Below are positions 6,740-63,050 of a stretch of 64,000 nucleotides of DNA, piece by piece. Position 1 is the stretch's first letter. Each line of letters begins with the position of its first letter. Location: assembly GCA_964016885.1 (NCBI GenBank), contig OZ024741.1, forward strand, positions 188,294,001 through 188,358,000, given 5' to 3'. The notes under the pieces are model-generated. The model saw nothing but the letters and a program-made list of their open reading frames with translations. It did not search any database and had not been told where the DNA came from. The translations under genes were made by a program, and so were the position numbers. Origin of the DNA: Eledone cirrhosa (lineage: Eukaryota).

Positions 6740-6867
6740 TATTTAACGATCGTTTCTAGGATATATATGTGTTAGAATTGGCATGCATATTCAACAGATC
6801 TATGTACAAAATTATACAAACTATCAAGATTAAATATACATACCAAACACACATATATGCCGTCTTC

Positions 6868-6872
<5 letters not shown>
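6740..6872 (-). ncRNA. Hammerhead-like motif, long stem II subfamily (partly degenerate)
   Basis: CTGAAGA ... ~105 nt ... GAAA CGATCG TT. Shares the palindromic stem III ACGATCGT and internal atctgttga..tatgca with the 28513 copy. Stem I is imperfect. Confidence 0.5.
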
Positions 6873-9639: not shown

Positions 9640-10083
<444 letters not shown>

Positions 10084-14793: not shown

Positions 14794-16105
14794 TACTCTT
14801 TTACCTGTTTCAGCCATCTGGCTGAGGCCATCCTGGGGCACCGCCCTGTTGCTACACATTTTATCTCCAGCCTGTATTAGTTGGCCACTGGTGCAAGAGG
14901 GAGTTTGTTGCTGCTGCCCTTAGGTTTCCCTCGTGCCTTGCTGTGGGCTCATCCGGGATCCTGGATAGCAAGGTGTCGAGATGTTTCTTGAAGACATCCA
15001 CATCCACACCATGCAGATCTCTCAGATCCCTCGGCAGCTTGTTGAAAAGTTGAGGGCCTTGAACCCCAGGCGATTACAATATCTGCTTCTTATTCTAGTG
15101 ACGTTCTGTTTGACAGTTGGCCCAGCTCCCAATGCCCAAGTTTGGTGCTAGTCCCTCCAGGATTTTTCCACATGTAGATCACTGCGTATCCCTCCCGTCT
15201 TCGTTTCAAGGAGTAGAAGTTCAGTTCTTTTAGCCTCTCCCAGTAGCTTATCTCCTTCATCGTCGCAATCCTCTTGGTGTAGCTTCGCTGGATTGCATCA
15301 AGCTCCGTGGTTAGTTTAACACTATGGGGTGACCACAACTGGGAGTAATCAACTGGGAGTAATAGTCCAGGCGGCTTAGGACAAATGTCCTCCATAGTGT
15401 CAACATGGTGTCTCGGTCTCTTGTCCGGAAAGTCCTCAAGATCCAGCCAGCGAGTTGTCTGTACATTGTCGCCACTTTCATGATGTGTGATGAAAAAGAT
15501 GTATCATCGCTCATGTCTATACCCAGGTCTCGTATCGATTCTGACACGGAGATATCAGTCCCTCCTGGTCCGGCGTAACTGTGTTGTACTGTATTTGAGT
15601 TTGCAGGCTTGTATTGTAGGGCTTGGAATTTGCCAGCATTAAACTGCATGTTATTATCTTCCGCCCATTTGTATATGGCATCCAGATCTTGTTGTAAAAG
15701 GGCAGCGTCAGCCGGGTTTTTGAATGCCTGTGCTACCTTAGTGTCATCAGCATAGCTAGTGAGGGATGTTGTTGTATGTACTACAGAGGGCATGTCTGAG
15801 AGAGCCACCAAAAACAGTAGTGGTCCCATGACTGTGCCTTGGGGCACCCCACTTGTTATTGATGTTTCCTTTGAGAGGGCCCCGTTTGCTGCGACTGTCT
15901 GGCTTCTGTCCTTTAAGAAGTCATGCAGCCACTCACCTACTTTTCCAGTTATGCCAAGTCCGTGTAGTTTGTGACATATCATTCCGTGGTCGACCTTGTC
16001 AAAGGCCTTTGTAAAGTCAAGATATATGACATCCACATGTCAGCTGTCTAGCAGTTGTTTCAGTATCCAGTCATAGTGATGTAGCAGCTGTGTAAGGCAG
16101 CTTCT
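14794..16105 (-). mobile_element. 5'-truncated CR1/L2-group LINE (RT pseudogene plus 3' tail)
   Basis: DVIYLDFTKAFDKVDHG...SGVPQGTVMGPLLFL...YADDTK...LDAIQRSYTKRI..YWERLKELNFYSLKRRRE. Frameshift at a 14-bp tandem duplication (caactgggagtaat x2, ~15336-15363). Confidence 0.9.
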
Positions 16106-16594: not shown

Positions 16595-17738
16595 CATCAT
16601 CATCATCATCATCAACGTTTAACGTCCGTGTTCCACGCTTGCATGGGTTTGGACGGGGGTAGTCCCACTTGAGGCAAGAGTGATTGTCTTGCTCGCATAG
16701 GACTGTCTGGCAGGTTTTCTACAGTTGGATGCCCTTCCTAACACCAACCACATTTACAGTGTGGGTCTGGGAGGTTTTTACCGTGTTGCCTACACGGCCA
16801 CATTACAGCGTGGACTGTGTGTTTTTTTGTCGTGACACCTACACGATCTCATTTGTTTCGGCCTCGATGGCGCGGCACCAACATAACTTTACATAGAACG
16901 GGGTGGTGTGGATGGGGTGGGGGCGGGGGTGGTGGGACGGGGTGTATTTTGTTAGAGATGCCTACTGGCTGGAGTAGGTTTTACTATATATTTAGGTAAG
17001 GCGGGTCTTCTCTGTTACTGAGTACCGCCAAAGGTCTCGGTCCAGTGACATTGTCTTGGAGAGGTGTAAGTGTGTGATGTCGGAGTTTATCAGCTCGTCC
17101 CAGGTTTTCCTAGGTCTGCCTATTCCGTGACTACCGTCTATCTTTATTGCCCTGCACTTTGTTATACAGCTATCGACTTTCATGCGCATCACGTGTCCAT
17201 ACCAACGTAGCCTTCTCTCGAGTAAACAACATCTGATCCCTCTTATCTCTAATTTTTTCCTTAGTTCGTTTATGCTTTGCTGTTCACGTATATTACTGTT
17301 ACACATCCAGCGGAGCATGCAAGCTTCGTTCCTCTCTAGTCTGCGTATATCCTCTGCACACAATGCCCAGGTCTCACTGCCGTGCAGCATTGCTGTTCGT
17401 ATGCAGGCATCGTACAACCTGCCTTTCATTTTTAGTGAGAACCCTTTAGCAGCTAATAGTGGTATAAGCTCTCTGAACTTTTTCCAACCAGTTCTGACTC
17501 TAGCTACAGTACTTTCAGAGCACCCTCCCCCACTGCTGATTTTATCGCCCAGGTAACGGAAGCTGTCCACTATTTCTATAGAACCCTCTGCGCAATTGAA
17601 AGAGCTAGTAGTTTGTGGGCACTTGCTGCTACTTATTGCACCAGAGCACCGGCCACATGTAAAATCTATGTTCTTAGTTAGCTTACCTGTGATCCCACTA
17701 CATCTTTTATGCACCCATACTTTGCATTTAGGACATAA

Positions 17739-20461: not shown

Positions 20462-21310
20462 CATCATCATCATCATCATCATCATCGTTTAACGTCCGTG
20501 TTCCACGCTTGCATGGGTTTGGATGGGGGTTTTCCCACTTGAGGCAAGAGTGATTGTCTTGCTCGCATAGGACTGTCTGGCGGGTTTTCTACAGCTGGAT
20601 GCCTTTCCTAACACCAACCGCATTTACAGTGTGGGGCTGGAGGTTTTTACCGTGTTGCCTACACGGCCACATTACAGCGTGGACTGTGTGTTTTTTTGTC
20701 GTGACACCTACACAATCTCATTTGTTTCGGCCTGGATGTTGTGGCACCAACATAACTTTACATTGAAAAGGGACGGTGTGGATGGAGTGGGGGTGGTGGG
20801 ACGGGGGTGTATTTTGTTAGAGATGCCTACTGACTGTAGTAGGTTTTACTTTGTATTTAGGTAAGGCGGGTCTTCGCTATTACTGAGTACTGCCAAAGGT
20901 CTCGGTCCAGTGACATTGTCATGGAGAGGTGTAAGTGTGTGAGGTCGGAATTTATCAGCTGGTCCCAGGTTTTTCTGGGTCTGCCTACTCCGTAGCTACC
21001 GTCTATCTTTATTGCCCTGCACTTTGTTATACAGCTGTTGTCTTTCATGCGCATCACGTGACCATACCAACGTAGCCTTCTCTCGAGTAAACAACATCTG
21101 ATCCCTCTTATTTCTAATTTTTTCCTTAGTTCGCTTATGCTTTGCCGTTCACGTATGTTACTATTACACATCCAGCGGAGCATGCAAGCTTCGTTCCTCT
21201 CTAGTCTGCGTATATCCTCTGCACACAATGCCCAGGTCTCACTGCCCTGCAACATCGCTGTTCGTATGCAGGCATCATACAACCTGCCTTTCATTTTTAG
21301 GGAGAACCCA
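20462..21310 (-). mobile_element. RTE-clade LINE 3' portion (family 1, second copy)
   Basis: Highly similar to 16595-17445 ([20 protein letters not shown]...KTRLT plus the same UTR). Confidence 0.9.
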
Positions 21311-22231: not shown

Positions 22232-22484
22232 GGAGGTGAGTTTTATTGTAGTACAATAAAGCAATGCAGATATCGGATAATATGTTGATTTAAAACTGCA
22301 CTATTCACAAGTGTTTTTTAACCTTCATATCATGTCTCCCTATTTTATCTGACGAAAACGCAAATGTCATCGCATGATGATATTTGTTTTTGAAATGCGC
22401 ATAATAAAATACATGGAACTCTTTTAACCATCTTTTGATCTTATTTATTATATATATATATATATATTTATTATTATTACTATA

Positions 22485-23931: not shown

Positions 23932-24836
23932 CCCAGTCCACACTGTAAACGTGGTTGATGTTAGGAAGGGCATCCAGCAGTAGAAAACCTGCCAGACAGT
24001 CCACGCTGTAATGTGGCCGTGTAGGCAACACGGTAAAAACCTCCCAGCCCCACACTGTAAATGTGGTTGGTGTTAGGAAGGGCATCCAGCTGTAGAAAAC
24101 CTGCCAGACAGTCCTATACGAGCAAGACAACCACTCTTGCCTCAAGTGGGTAATTCCCGTCTAAACCCATGCTACCGTGGAAGATAGACGTTAAATGATG
24201 ATGATGATGATGATACACATATCATCATCATCATCGTTTAACGTCCCTGTTCCACGCTTGCATGGGTTTGGACGGGGGTTTTCCCACTTGAGGCAAGAGT
24301 GGTTGTCTTGCTCGCATAGGACTGTCTGGCGGGTTTTCTACAGCTGGATGCCCTTCCTAACACCAACCACATTTACAGTGTGGGGCTGGGAGGTTTTTAC
24401 CGTGTTGCCTACACGGCCACATTACAGCGTGGACTGTCTGGCGTGTTTTCTACAGCTGGATGCCCTTCCTAACACCAACCACATTTACAGTGTGGGGCTG
24501 GGAGGTTTTTACCGTGTTGCCTACACGGCCACATTACAGTGTGGACTGTCTGGCGGGTTTTCTACAGCTGGATGCCCTTCCTAACACCAACCACATTTAC
24601 AGTGTGGGCTGGGAGGTTTTTACCGTGTTGCCTACACGGCCACATTACAACGTGGACTGTCTGGCATGTTTTCTACAGCTGGATGCTCTTCCTAACACCA
24701 ACCACATTTACAGTGTGGGACTGTGAGGTTTTTACCGTGTTGCCTACACGGTCACATTACAGCGTGGACTGTGTGTTTTTTTGTCGTGACACCTACACGA
24801 TCTCGTTTGTTTCGGCCTGGATGTTGTGGCACCAAC

Positions 24837-24840
<4 letters not shown>
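23932..24840. mobile_element. Two tail-to-tail RTE family-1 3' UTR fragments, the second with a tandemly amplified 112-bp unit
   Basis: Plus copy 23932-24210 and minus copy 24222-24840. The unit start ggactgt recurs at 24319, 24431, 24543, 24654 and 24766. Confidence 0.85.
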
Positions 24841-24922
<82 letters not shown>

Positions 24923-24964
24923 CATATATACATACATATATATATATATATTACATATATATAT

Positions 24965-24995
<31 letters not shown>

Positions 24996-25094
24996 TGCAT
25001 ATATATATATATATATATACACATATGTATACTCTTTTACCTCTTCCAGCCATCCAGCTGAGGCCATGCTGAGGGACTGCCCTTATATATATAT

Positions 25095-25530
25095 CAACAT
25101 CACCGTTTTACGTCCGTTCTTCCATTCTAGCATGGGTTAGACGGCTTGTCCTGTTGTGGGCAGTGTCCGGTCAGCTGACTTTGTCTTGCGCACATGGGAA
25201 CTGATGCTGGCTTGATTTCTACAGCTGGATGCCCTTCCTAACACCAACCTCATTTACAATGAGTGCTGGGTGCTTTTTTTCCATGGCGCCTACACGTCCA
25301 CTTTACAGTGTGGGCTGGGTGCTTTTTTGCCGTGGCACCTCCACGACCACTTTGCAGTGGAATGATATGGACCCCATCCCTATCATCTCATTTCTACAGC
25401 TGAGTAAACTGGAGCAATGTGAAATAAAGTGTCTTGCTCAAGGAAACAAGACCTCACCCGGTCTGAGATTTGAACTCACAACCTTTCAATTGCAAGGCCA
25501 ATGCTCTAACCACTAAGCCATGTGCCTCCA
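25095..25530 (-). mobile_element. SINE family A with long RTE family-2 tail
   Basis: 25350-25530 is the SINE A head, and 25095-25350 is nearly identical to the 3' UTR at 62620-62875. Confidence 0.8.
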
Positions 25531-26968: not shown

Positions 26969-28512
26969 CCAGCAATTATCCCAGTGCATTACTGGTGCTT
27001 TATTTTATCGACCCCCGTAAGGATGAAAGGAAAAGCTATTCTCGGCAGGATTTGAACTCAGAACGTAAAGGAACATAACTCTATGCTGCAAAGCATGGTG
27101 TCTGACGCTCTACTGATACTGCCAATCCACAACAATAATAATAGTTTCTTATATAGGCACAAGGCCAGAAATTCTGGGGGAGGGGAAAGTCGATTAAAAT
27201 CGACCCCAGTGCGTGACTGGTACTTTATTTTATCGACCCTGTAAGGATGAAAGGCAAAGTTAACCTCGGCGGGATTTGAACTCAGAACATAGGGGGCCAT
27301 AACTCTATGCTGTAAATCATGGTGTCTGACGCTCTACTGATACTGCCAATCCACCATAATAATAATTTCTAAAGATAGTAATATCAATTTATGCCTAGCA
27401 ACTGAGTTTAATATAGAATCCCAAACAAGTAGAATGAAACGAAACAACCATGCATGGTCAGTCTAATTCCAAAATAAGAAAAAGAATTGGTAAAAATTCT
27501 GATTAAATTCATCCAATTGTAAAATTGGTCAAATTTAATCACTTTTGTTTCCACTTTTATCTTGAATCAGTTCAAATTGTGAACAAAAATCAATTTGTCT
27601 GACCTCAATAATCAATATTAAATACTAAATGTAGTGCATATGATGTTGATGATGATGGTTGTGGCCTGAAAATATCTAATTCAAAACAAACAGAATACAA
27701 AACAAACCAAAATCCTTCCCTCCCGCAACCAATGCTACAAAAAAAAAAAAAAAGTAAAAAAAATTACCCAGTGTTCTTAGTTAATCACTTGACCTGCTAG
27801 AAATAGTACCTAATTTATCTTTTAATCACACCACATTATTTTGATTGGCAGTATCAGTAGAGCGTCAGACATCATGCTTTGCAACATAGAGTTGTGGCTC
27901 TTTATGTTCTGAGTTCAAATCCTGCCAAGGTTAATGTTCTCTTTCATCCTTACAGGGTTGATAAAATAAAGCACCAGTAATTCACGGGGATAATTGCTGG
28001 TCTTGTGCCAAAAGTATTAAAAATAAAAAATAAAAAAAAGATAACATTAAATAATGCAGTCCTAGATATGCTCCAAATAGAAGAGATAGGTCTGGTGGAT
28101 CATGGCTGTCTTGGGGCTAAACAACAACAACCACTACCCAAGGTTATACTTTGTGGCCAGATAAACATTACATCATTTTAAAATGTCTTCCTTTTCTAAA
28201 CATATAAGTGGAATAAAAAAAAAACAAAAAAACAATAATAACGTTGATTTCTGATATGGCCCCAAGACCACAAATCTTGGGGAAAAGAGATGATACAGTT
28301 AACCCTTTCATTACTATATTTCTAATAAAAGACACTATTTGAATGCCTTAACCACTAAGCTACATGCCTCCTAATTTGCTTTAGAAAAATATTGTTACAT
28401 AACTTGTACTTTCAAATATTTTACAGTTACATCTAGAGTCTGACAGTGAATATCGCTAAATATTCATATCGATGTAGTTTTTTATATTGACATTCTTGGA
28501 CATTCTTGGACA

Positions 28513-28636
28513 TTCCACTGAAGAGTTATAAGAGTCCACTTGCACGTAAATCTGTTGATCATATGCAAGCTTCTACATAACTTGGACATTTTTCTACCAC
28601 CTTGTAGAAATCTTATAATGAAACGATCGTATGGAA
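28513..28636 (+). ncRNA. Complete type-I hammerhead with expanded branched stem II, GUA site
   Basis: ttcca CTGAAGA gttataaga-(77 nt)-tcttataat GAAA cgatc GTA tggaa. 5-bp stem I, 9-bp basal stem II, palindromic stem III ACGATCGT. Confidence 0.75.
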
Positions 28637-28899
28637 AGTGAGATTTATTTAATTATGTCTCATATAAAATAATACAGCCGACTATCCACACAATACAATA
28701 TAGTTAGCACCCCAAACGTATAATTGGGAATATACTTAGGTATTTCCTAATGTTTGTTGAGTGAGATGGAAGTTGGTCGGAGTATCGCTAATAGCTTTCT
28801 CTGTTTATGTATTAAATATATATATATATATATAGAAATGGCCTCTACAGGACTAGAATTGTTTCATTCGAAGGAAATCATCATATATACATATATATA

Positions 28900-35828: not shown

Positions 35829-36196
35829 TCATCATCATCATCACCGTTTTACGTCCGTTCTTCCACGCTAGCATGGGTTAGACGGCTTGTCCTGTTGTGG
35901 GCAGTGTCTGGTCGGCTGACCATGCCTTGCTCATACAGGAACTGATTTGGCTTGATTTCTACAGCTGGATGCCCTTCCTAACACTAACCTCATTTACAGT
36001 GAGTGCTGGGTGCTTTTTTGTGGCGCCTACACGTCCACTTTACAATGTGGGCTGGGTGCTTTTTTGCCGTGGCACCTCCACGACCACCTTGCGGTGGGGG
36101 GTGTGGGGGCATATTGTCTATATGCTTCAGCTTGTACCCATGGGAGGTCGGGTACTCTGTATTACTGCGTGACACCAGAGGTCACGGTCGTGTGTC
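35829..36196 (-). mobile_element. RTE family-2 LINE 3' end
   Basis: Near-identical to 62603-62985. Encodes THDRDLWCHAVIQSTRPPMGTS* then UTR and (TGA)n. Confidence 0.8.
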
Positions 36197-38477: not shown

Positions 38478-38603
38478 GCAATAATAATAATAACGACAAC
38501 AACAATAATAATATACATATTCATATATATATACACACACACGCACGCACATAAGCATATCTACACACACACACACACACACAAACACACGATAGCAACT
38601 AAC

Positions 38604-38634
<31 letters not shown>

Positions 38635-38680
38635 TAAAGTTAAATAAAAGTCAAATGATTAAAATTTAGCTTCGGTTATT

Positions 38681-38735
38681 ACTGCTATATATATTTCAGT
38701 GACAGCCATCTTTGGCTGTGACCTCTTCAGGCAGT
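38681..38735 (-). ncRNA. Complete type-I hammerhead, AUA site (host-sense copy)
   Basis: actgc CTGAAGA ggt-c-acagcca-aaga-tggctgt-c-act GAAA tatat ATA gcagt. Confidence 0.8.
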
Positions 38736-39070
38736 TTGAATTAGTATGGTATAGACAAGTACATATGTTGTTTAGGTGTATAATATTGTCAATACTCTGA
38801 TATGCCCAGTTCCTTGTTGGGTTGTTAATTCACTGAGGAACTGGAGTCATATGAATTCAAACAAACGAATTTCAGTGTCAAAGGTCCCCTTCTCCTGGGG
38901 ACCTTTGAGAGTAGAAGGGGACCTTTGACACTGAAATTCGTTTGTTTGAATTCATATGACTCCAGTTCCTCAGTGAATTAACAACCCAACAAGGAACTGG
39001 GCATATCAGAGTATTGGCAATATTATACACCTAAACAACATATGTACTTGTCTATACCATACTAATTCAA

Positions 39071-39125
39071 ACTGCCTGAAGAGGTCACAGCCAAAGATGG
39101 CTGTCACTGAAATATATATAGCAGT
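39071..39125 (+). ncRNA. Complete type-I hammerhead, AUA site (mirror copy)
   Basis: Identical motif on plus, with predicted cleavage after 39120. Immediately followed by AATAAA. Confidence 0.8.
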
Positions 39126-39359
39126 AATAAATGAAGCTAAATTTTAATCATTTAACTTTTATTTAACTTTATTTTACACTACTCCGGAGTAACCAAACCA
39201 ACCTGCGCACTTCGTCGAGTGCTCCAGCCTGCATACTGAGGTGTTGGTATACAACCAACATAAACTCAAAATCTATATATAGACATACATATATGTTAGA
39301 ATTTGATTAGTTTCAGCTGAAAATGGCAGGCAACCATACAACTATTAACTTTTTCACTA

Positions 39360-39588
39360 TTAACCCTTTAGCATTTAAACCGGCCATATACGGCCAGAAT
39401 TCTCTCACCTCTTTCTGTTCAAACTAGCTGTAACCAGCCACTCATACTGATGTTAAGGTATTGTTCTCAAAATAAATAATATCAAAATCTCATAGATTCG
39501 ATATTATGTGAGATAATTATGTGAGATAAAGCCTTTACTGTGAAAATATAATAGTAAATATAGAGTAATGTAAATGCTAAAGGGTTAA
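39360..39588 (+). mobile_element. Intact piggyBac-type MITE (221 bp, TTAA target-site duplication)
   Basis: TTAA|CCCTTTAGCATTTA...TAAATGCTAAAGGG|TTAA: perfect 14-bp TIRs with CCC/GGG ends and no ORF. Further copies at 42239-42450, 45578-45800, 55231-55400 (truncated), 58348-58548 and 58745-58928. Confidence 0.88.
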
Positions 39589-51226: not shown

Positions 51227-51266
51227 TTCAAAATATTAACAAAATAGATATTCTTGTGATCAATTA

Positions 51267-51333
51267 TATTTTATTATACATATTTCAGAGGTACTGAGTT
51301 AAGTTCAACAGTACGTCCTCATCAGATAAAATA
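51267..51333 (-). ncRNA. Complete type-I hammerhead, AUA site
   Basis: tattttat CTGATGA gga-c-gtactg-(12 nt)-cagtac-c-tct GAAA tatgt ATA ataaaata. 8-bp stem I and the same stem II architecture as 38681/39071. Confidence 0.72.
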
Positions 51334-62602: not shown

Positions 62603-63050
62603 TCATCATCATCATCATCATCATCACCGTTTTACGTCCGTTCTTCCACGCTAGCATGGGTTAGACGGGTTGTCCTGTTGTGGGCAGTGTCTGGTCGGCT
62701 GACCATGCCTTGCTCATACAGGAACTGATCTGGCTTGATTTCTACAGCTGGATGCCCTTCCTAACACCAACCTCATTTACAGTGAGTGCTGGGTGCTTTT
62801 TCGTGGCGCCTACACGTCCACTTTACAGTGTGGGCTGGGTGCTTTTTTGCCGTGGCACCTCCACGACCACCTTGCGGTGGGGGGGGGGGGGGGGGGGCAT
62901 ATTGTTTATATGCTTCAGCATGTACCCATGGGAGGTCGGGTACCCTGTATTACTGCGTGACGCCAGAAGTCACGGTCGTGTGTCATTGACTTTGAGAGGT
63001 GTAGTTGGGTAAGGTCGGCTTTTATCACCTCATCCCAAGTCATCTTGGGA
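62603..63050 (-). mobile_element. RTE family-2 LINE 3' end
   Basis: PKMTWDEVIKADLTQLHLSKSMTHDRDFWRHAVIQGTRPPMGTC*, then UTR and (TGA)n tail, flanked by (TA)n. Confidence 0.85.

Follow-up and report, generated by a model that had tools for sequence, protein, structure and literature searches.

Does a hammerhead motif with a stem II of 95 nt, lying in an intron of Eledone cirrhosa, belong to a family of ribozymes, and what is its long stem II? In the window, by which we mean the whole 64,000-nucleotide stretch of DNA analysed, positions 28513-28636 of the plus strand (locus A) hold a complete type I hammerhead motif with all named elements in place and the type I order of CUGAnGA, GAAA and UH core. 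Its parts are these:

28513-28517 (TTCCA) with 28632-28636 (TGGAA), plus strand: stem I, 5 bp
28518-28524, plus strand: catalytic core CUGAAGA, without a difference among the 40 of 166 differences listed for relatives
28525-28533 with 28611-28619, plus strand: basal stem II, 9 bp, with a G.U closing pair
28534-28610, plus strand: structured insert inside basal stem II, 77 nt, gap-free in one relative (X3 record 9)
GTCCA from 28534 with TGGAC from 28583, plus strand: inner helix of the minimum-energy fold
CTTGCA from 28539 with TGCAAG from 28564, plus strand: inner helix of the minimum-energy fold
TTTCTAC from 28591 with GTAGAAA from 28604, plus strand: inner helix of the minimum-energy fold
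28620-28631, plus strand: GAAA, palindromic stem III ACGATCGT (28623-28630) and GUA triplet (28629-28631)

With GUA at 28629-28631 the palindrome is given as ACGAUCGU; H17 is A28631, and the predicted cut lies 3' of 28631. Around the core, helix I has 5 bp, helix II 9 bp and helix III 2 bp in a monomer or 8 bp in a dimer, and stem II measures 95 nt between CUGAAGA and GAAA. The 9-bp basal stem II, the self-complementary stem III and the inner helices of the original prediction were all located where it had placed them. G10.1-C11.1, a conserved but not invariant pair, is replaced by G.U, and weak closings at this position are found in nature (PMC3088659). In PLEs, the terminal repeats contain hammerheads of type I whose stem III is palindromic and unstable (PMC4209133). 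Both the palindromic stem III and the 4-5 bp helix I of such hammerheads are present in locus A, whereas helix II departs from their norm of up to ~8 bp with a short loop, its span being 95 nt rather than 24 nt or less.

A strict descriptor (stem I of at least 5 bp, stem II of at least 9 bp, palindromic stem III, span of 60-200 nt) matched the window once, at locus A, and none of 300 windows shuffled in 1-kb blocks; relaxing it to at least 4 bp for stem I and at least 5 bp for stem II likewise gave no match in 300 shuffled windows. Could short motifs in AT-rich DNA nevertheless have fallen into this arrangement by chance? Core motifs at such spacing do arise, since a scan with the long-stem core pattern returned 92 matches (1 viral, 91 metagenome), and an Rfam search of 28400-28815 gave no hammerhead family even at E <= 10. 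Set against this are the shuffled windows, the position of locus A in the tail of a repeat and the stems themselves: none of the 92 matches in viral and metagenome contigs combined a stem I of at least 3 bp with a stem II of at least 4 bp. A chance origin is largely refuted and hardly credible. Comparing the 92 matches by blastn produced none like locus A or its candidate relative, copy B, and the tail and junction patterns of the locus A repeat had no match in viral contigs or in prokaryote genomes. The silence of Rfam would be expected if the 77-nt insert defeats its models. Over the whole window, Rfam gave microRNA-type matches to TA repeats and fold-backs, none at gathering score among the 150 of 181 listed. 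The largest cluster of chance pattern matches was a CRISPR array whose repeat ends in hammerhead-like CUGAAGA and GAAAC (loci L004, L005, L008, L009, L013 and about 30 similar ones, at the pattern match).

Both long-stem loci lie in a single host intron:

5365-29728, minus strand: FBXO11-like intron, ~24 kb, containing locus A (antisense) and copy B (sense)

From tblastn and GT/AG ends, the flanking FBXO11-like exons were placed on the minus strand at 29923-29729 and 5364-5219. The F-box exon matches Octopus FBXO11-like proteins (98% and 100% in two of three matches), the upstream exon is 75% identical to an O. sinensis protein, so that the host is probably a different octopus, and the first coding exon of the gene was not found in the window. 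Locus A lies 1.1 kb from the intron donor. The same intron holds, at 15314-16039 on the minus strand, a reverse-transcriptase fragment (Pfam RVT_1, E 4e-19) that is probably a LINE remnant and is not linked to locus A or copy B.

The window contains four more hammerheads, all with short stems (22349+, 38730-, 39076+ and 51325-; spans 26-36 nt), and three of the four lie 45-55 nt before (TA)n. The distance to the following (TA)n is 185 nt for locus A and 208 nt for copy B; of 1987 background positions, 12% have a (TA)n within 210 nt. Two of the short-stem hammerheads, at 22341-22412 (plus) and 51266-51333 (minus), have the same 8-bp stem I and lie 45 and 55 nt before (TA)n. The region 38600-39180 is a near-perfect fold-back of ~250 bp with two identical short hammerheads (38730 minus, 39076 plus), an inverted arrangement typical of PLE insertions; the Rfam match to MIR841 is that fold-back. 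Dispersed repeats of two families (D16, D17, D19 and D20) are present too, each family in several copies, at 9705-9791, 16602-16853, 20472-20722, 24221-25359, 35964-36096 and 62747-62879 and further positions at 39360, 42222, 45578, 55230 and 58732.

Locus A is embedded in a repeat whose remaining parts are as follows:

28440-28512, plus strand: 5' part of the repeat copy, left edge approximate, with a 10-bp tandem just before stem I
28637-28816, plus strand: 3' tail of the repeat, with high depth and weak structure (z = -2.5)
28817-28834, plus strand: (TA)n at the 3' end of the repeat, the presumed insertion target

Five of eight sequencing runs, none of the five recorded as RNA, contained part of the stretch, and four were placed on 28245-28812 at 80% likeness. 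X1 and X3 come from one sample of organism A, X4 comes from organism B, and X6 consists of RAD reads of organism A. Read depth does not give copy number, so only the shape of the depth profile was used. In X1, summed depth was ~14 in the left flank, 0 at 28397-28434, ~1200 at 28454-28491 and 250 at 28511-28529; it was 5,800 at 28549-28567, 16,500 at 28606-28624 and 18,000-255,000 over 28644-28812, staying above 40,000 over 28644-28795. From the second species, 75 X4 contigs continue into TA repeats behind 28810 (agreement 0.57). Locus A sits near the 3' end of a dispersed repeat that ends in (TA)n and is present in two species. The 3' end of the repeat is fixed, and matches become far fewer toward its 5' end, either by truncation or by divergence or by the two together. 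Within the window, 28301-28800 has no second copy. An 11-of-12 direct repeat, 28448-28459 and 28780-28791, lies near both ends of the repeat, 332 bp apart.

How much of this family carries the long stem II? X3 record 9 spans 28511-28675 with 17 other letters and no gaps (90% identical) and keeps the whole long stem II, and partial records of the long form occur in the second species too. At 28535, 10 contigs in X1, 16 in X3 and all 17 reads (from 7 starts) in X6 have a different letter, so that these contigs and reads represent copies other than locus A. Because a contig that is 90% identical keeps the full insert gap-free, we take the long stem II as a likely trait of the family. Other contigs join 28494 to 28640 (X1, X3) and 28487 to 28745 (X4) with no matching hammerhead between. 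These joins tie the 5' part to the tail, and depth at CUGAAGA is 100-1000-fold below that of the tail, so that in most of the family the long insert may be a different one or absent. The second-species contig could be an orthologue of locus A and not an independent copy.

A second long-stem hammerhead had been proposed as a relative of locus A:

6745-6869, minus strand: copy B, a degenerate long-stem-II hammerhead with a rod-shaped stem II and a 106-nt span

On the minus strand, CUGAAGA occupies 6869-6863, GAAACGATCGT runs from 6756 and H is T6745; from GAAA, copy B and locus A share the same 11 letters. Their inserts align locally over ~35 nt with a score of 32, which was reached by 1 of 5000 shuffles and by none of 2390 real window segments. 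The insert of copy B is an unbranched rod (z = -8.2), TA/TG-rich in part, and the stretch shared with locus A pairs with the upstream arm in copy B and with itself in locus A. Stem I of copy B has one contiguous pair, and its 5' side abuts (TA)n. Alone, copy B passes only a loose descriptor with a chance rate of 0.73 per window (151 of 300 shuffled windows). Its C.A closing resembles the row PLE-X1_cBra (PMC8557442). The tail of copy B at 6745-6670 (minus) contains two complements of the 3' strand of stem I, folded into a hairpin, which would block the hammerhead. The core, the ~35 nt shared with locus A and the 106-nt span are in place; the insert is a rod and not branched, and stem I is broken. 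Membership of the same subfamily is not supported: besides the rod-shaped insert, the 208 nt of tail up to the next (TA)n are unrelated to those of locus A (542 of 1000 shuffles score as high). The most fitting view of copy B is that of a remote relative, now decayed, that belongs to a different family. Of the unusual long-stem-II subfamily of the original prediction, the recurrence of the long form is supported, by the gap-free contig and the partial second-species records; the inclusion of copy B is not.

We next consider the insert itself. The 94-nt stem II piece of locus A folds with z = -3.97 (none of 200 shuffles as stable) and the whole 124-nt motif with z = -2.0 (7 of 200 shuffles). 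Within the 124-nt piece the three named inner helices have pair probabilities of 0.91-0.99; in the longer context 28440-28815, hammerhead helices I and II drop to 0.21-0.26 and are still in the minimum-energy fold. Two hairpins bear on the inner architecture:

28539-28569, plus strand: best-supported inner hairpin, probability 0.92-0.99 in all four contexts, overlapping the stretch shared with copy B
28571-28609 (28571-28577 with 28603-28609), plus strand: alternative second hairpin, which excludes gtcca/tggac and tttctac/gtagaaa

In locus A the alternative hairpin lies 2.4 kcal/mol above the minimum, with a probability of 0.03, and the letters of relatives favour it. Comparison with relatives covered 40 of 166 differences and 12 of 24 gaps. 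The core, the palindrome and basal stem II contain none of the 40 listed differences, whereas the insert has 17 (14 substitutions, 2 deletions and 1 insertion, among the listed differences and gaps). One listed difference lies at H17, where A28631 becomes U as in copy B, and many relatives carry this U. In hairpin 28539-28569, a C.A mismatch becomes a pair and a G.U becomes A-U; one X4 contig (28513-28586 by end distances) has both changes plus a U-A to A-U exchange. A common difference at 28565 breaks a pair of this hairpin unless its partner changes as well, and four changes fall in loops. Seven differences discriminate between the folds: in the fold with gtcca/tggac and tttctac/gtagaaa, five of them break a pair and none adds one, whereas in the alternative fold none breaks a pair and two add one. 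Since letters are unlinked across reads, partner changes may be hidden and the alternative was found after the fact, this comparison is a lead and no proof of covariation.

The three inner helices thus fared unequally. All belong to the minimum-energy fold, and the 28539-28569 hairpin also fits the relatives; gtcca/tggac and tttctac/gtagaaa are disfavoured by them. Most likely, the insert consists of two hairpins, 28539-28569 and 28571-28609. A switch with the upstream TGGAC repeats, which reaches a probability of up to 0.26 in the long context, was dropped as a family feature because the tandem copies are thinly covered in relatives.

These comparisons bear on the idea that a short-stem PLE hammerhead gained loop II sequence once, was inactivated or left neutral and has since been passively copied, with inner helices that are incidental. 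Such a history would account for the differing architecture of the inserts of locus A and copy B, in which the shared stretch pairs differently, for the disagreement of relatives' letters with gtcca/tggac and tttctac/gtagaaa, and for the small number of records that reach CUGAAGA. It fits poorly with the absence of any listed change in core, basal stem II and palindrome as against 17 in the insert (40 of 166 differences listed), with differences in 28539-28569 that mostly keep or add pairs, and with the occurrence, next to two unrelated tails, of the same stem III together with a stem II that is long and folds strongly. We regard a one-off gain as very improbable.

Another account of the extra sequence centres on part of the insert:

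28546-28607, plus strand: intron-like stretch of 62 nt, with a GTAAAT donor-like start, a pyrimidine run and a TAG end

The insert would then be mostly a retained spliceosomal intron of the element's terminal repeat, and splicing could switch cleavage. Without it, stem II would measure 33 nt, which is within the 26-36 nt of the short-stem hammerheads elsewhere in the window. The insert has one site resembling a donor and one resembling an acceptor; of 2026 background segments of 95 nt, 26 have such a pair, as judged by a filter that the two genuine FBXO11 sites pass too, and G28546 and T28547 are kept in ~85-90% of X1 and X3 depth. The second-species (X4) contig, however, has both donor bases changed and keeps the hairpin pairing; no joint among 15 of 16 skips 28546-28607, copy B has no acceptor under the same filter, and the intron was noticed after the fact. 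A length of 62 nt may be short for a mollusc intron. As precedent, PLEs retain introns, one of which, in D. virilis, extends up to helix I of the hammerhead (PMC4209133). Taken together, we find an intron distinctly improbable.

To which kind of element does the repeat belong? No RT or GIY-YIG domain was found near locus A by Pfam in 150 of the 175 longer ORFs (no searched ORF lies within 28180-28750) or by eye in the plus frames of the locus A flanks; the only RT match in these ORFs is the fragment at 15314-16039. In the Naiad, Chlamys and Hydra consensus files, where line breaks can hide matches, the tail motifs of locus A were absent apart from two chance-like matches inside ORFs, and no short motif matched a Naiad 3' end. 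Locus A combines an AC...GU stem III, a GUH site and a (TA)n target, which is suggestive of the Hydra clade and not exclusive to it. All Hydra-clade rows in File S2 of Craig 2021 have the AC...GU stem III and the GUH site, and nearly all families are listed with a (TA)n preference (PMC8557442). As in locus A, these hammerheads are of type I and lie near the 3' end, H being A, U or C, and many rows have a G.U or U.U at the base of stem II, comparable to the G.U of locus A. Hydra-1_oBim of Octopus bimaculoides shares CUGAAGA-G...U-GAAA with locus A and is otherwise different in sequence (PMC8557442). Hydra-clade PLEs are placed by clade-specific motifs of their ORF and by RT phylogeny, whereas the locus A copy has none from which to place its clade; its core, stem III and (TA)n preference are suggestive of the Hydra clade as the closest. 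A PLE origin is likely, judged from the anatomy and this Hydra-clade-like core.

The published octopus Naiad ends led us to reject a Naiad 'half-core' identity for locus A, as they have GAAA before CUGAUGA and no shared motifs (PMC8557442). In File S5 of that paper, the 3' ends of Naiad_Ovul and the preceding record have the GAAA block before CUGAUGA, with pairings that fit a non-circularly permuted hammerhead by eye; Naiad_Ovul is marked 'HHR_half_core' there.

The lack of an ORF also suits a short, non-autonomous element resembling a retrozyme or a SINE, which lacked an ORF of its own from the start and whose extensively paired RNA includes the long stem II. Its ~375 nt fall in the size range of non-LTR retrozyme units (PMC7229834; bioRxiv 10.64898/2026.07.22.740005), hairpins extend across the whole copy and the 11-of-12 direct repeat lies near both ends. 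Non-LTR retrozymes are likewise non-coding repeats, a few hundred bases long, with a type I hammerhead (same sources). They are, however, defined by tandem units and circular RNAs, whereas the locus A copy is single, ends in (TA)n and has no tandem partner in the window, and the 5'-to-3' depth gradient together with the (TA)n end fits truncated PLE insertions. We consider an element that never coded rather improbable. Li 2026 argues that retrozyme-like elements derive from PLE terminal repeats (bioRxiv 10.64898/2026.07.22.740005), which makes this alternative partly a variant of the reading that we prefer: locus A is probably a type I hammerhead with a 95-nt stem II in the tail, likely 5'-truncated, of a PLE or in a non-coding derivative of one, and would be cut as a dimer after 28631.

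Among known hammerheads, those of metazoan PLEs resemble locus A in that helix I is short and helix III palindromic, that the motifs are dispersed and mostly single and that activity as a dimer is predicted, and differ in that all 56 aligned examples have a helix II plus loop of no more than ~23 nt by eye, against 95 nt, and G10.1-C11.1 as consensus in place of G.U (PMC4209133). In the Hydra rows, stem II plus loop is at most ~24 nt by eye, compared with 95 nt in locus A and 106 nt in copy B (PMC8557442). The expectation that PLE-type hammerheads usually have a short stem II was thus confirmed for the published metazoan ones compared here, at no more than ~24 nt against 95. Spikemoss PLE-X1, with two rows marked as deviating, has a loop II of 29-35 nt and a span of ~48-53 nt by eye (PMC8557442). 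This is a precedent for a long stem II in PLEs at half the length of locus A, but it comes from plants and from endonuclease-less elements and has no palindromic 8-nt stem III. The discontinuous Clec2 hammerhead of mammals is also natural and has a large insertion in one helix; unlike locus A, it is of type III, with 150-1500 nt in helix I, and is domesticated in a 3' UTR (PMC6155905).

How could such a ribozyme work? A tandem transcript of the source element would allow two copies to swap stem III strands and to cut after 28631. We infer cleavage as a dimer from published PLE and newt hammerheads. The 8-bp stem III self-duplex of locus A is worth -10.0 kcal/mol, whereas closure in the monomer costs +1.3, energies that fit published dimer-dependent PLE cleavage. 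For the S. mansoni hammerhead, a single motif did not cut, and dimers and trimers cut weakly (PMC4209133). The insert may be a tolerated, inherited domain stacked on the 9-bp basal stem II, away from the core, which it need not touch; PLE hammerheads are described as having no tertiary contact between stems I and II (PMC6155905). As a guess, it might bind the element's own protein, because one PLE hammerhead, that of PAc, cuts only with its element's protein (PMC11167929). In PAc, hammerhead mutants left insertion in vitro unaffected and no reads ended at the cut site (PMC11167929), so that cleavage may matter little. This copy is likely a fossil without activity, given that the host pre-mRNA carries the reverse complement of locus A and that there is no partner copy in its vicinity; it probably does nothing for its host. 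A bolder proposal, which we hold to be unlikely, is an octopus PLE lineage with a conserved stem II domain of 75-90 nt that gates dimer cleavage, through docking of the element's protein or through removal of an intron that restores a canonical stem II.

We found no PLE hammerhead with a stem II of ~95 nt in the literature, although Lunse 2017, Arkhipova 2017, Repbase or Dfam may list one. Lunse 2017 reportedly treats PLE hammerhead variants directly and may list long-stem forms. The literature covered included PMC10085705, PMC6765202 and PMC13282606. The core search described in Craig 2021 used a spacer of 7-17 nt and placed half-cores at 35-50 nt (PMC8557442), limits that would not have picked up a form of 95 nt.

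Hammerheads are a known and abundant feature of PLE tails. A family in which the core is retained with a stem II four times the usual size means that descriptors built on short loops undercount these ribozymes. Should the domain be neutral, what we describe amounts to a modest variation of structure in junk DNA. If gating were true, gated long-stem ribozymes would escape Rfam and the published descriptors and could be a hidden class in PLE families now counted as hammerhead-less. As a variant made by nature, the long stem II offers a way to learn what PLE hammerheads require for cutting.
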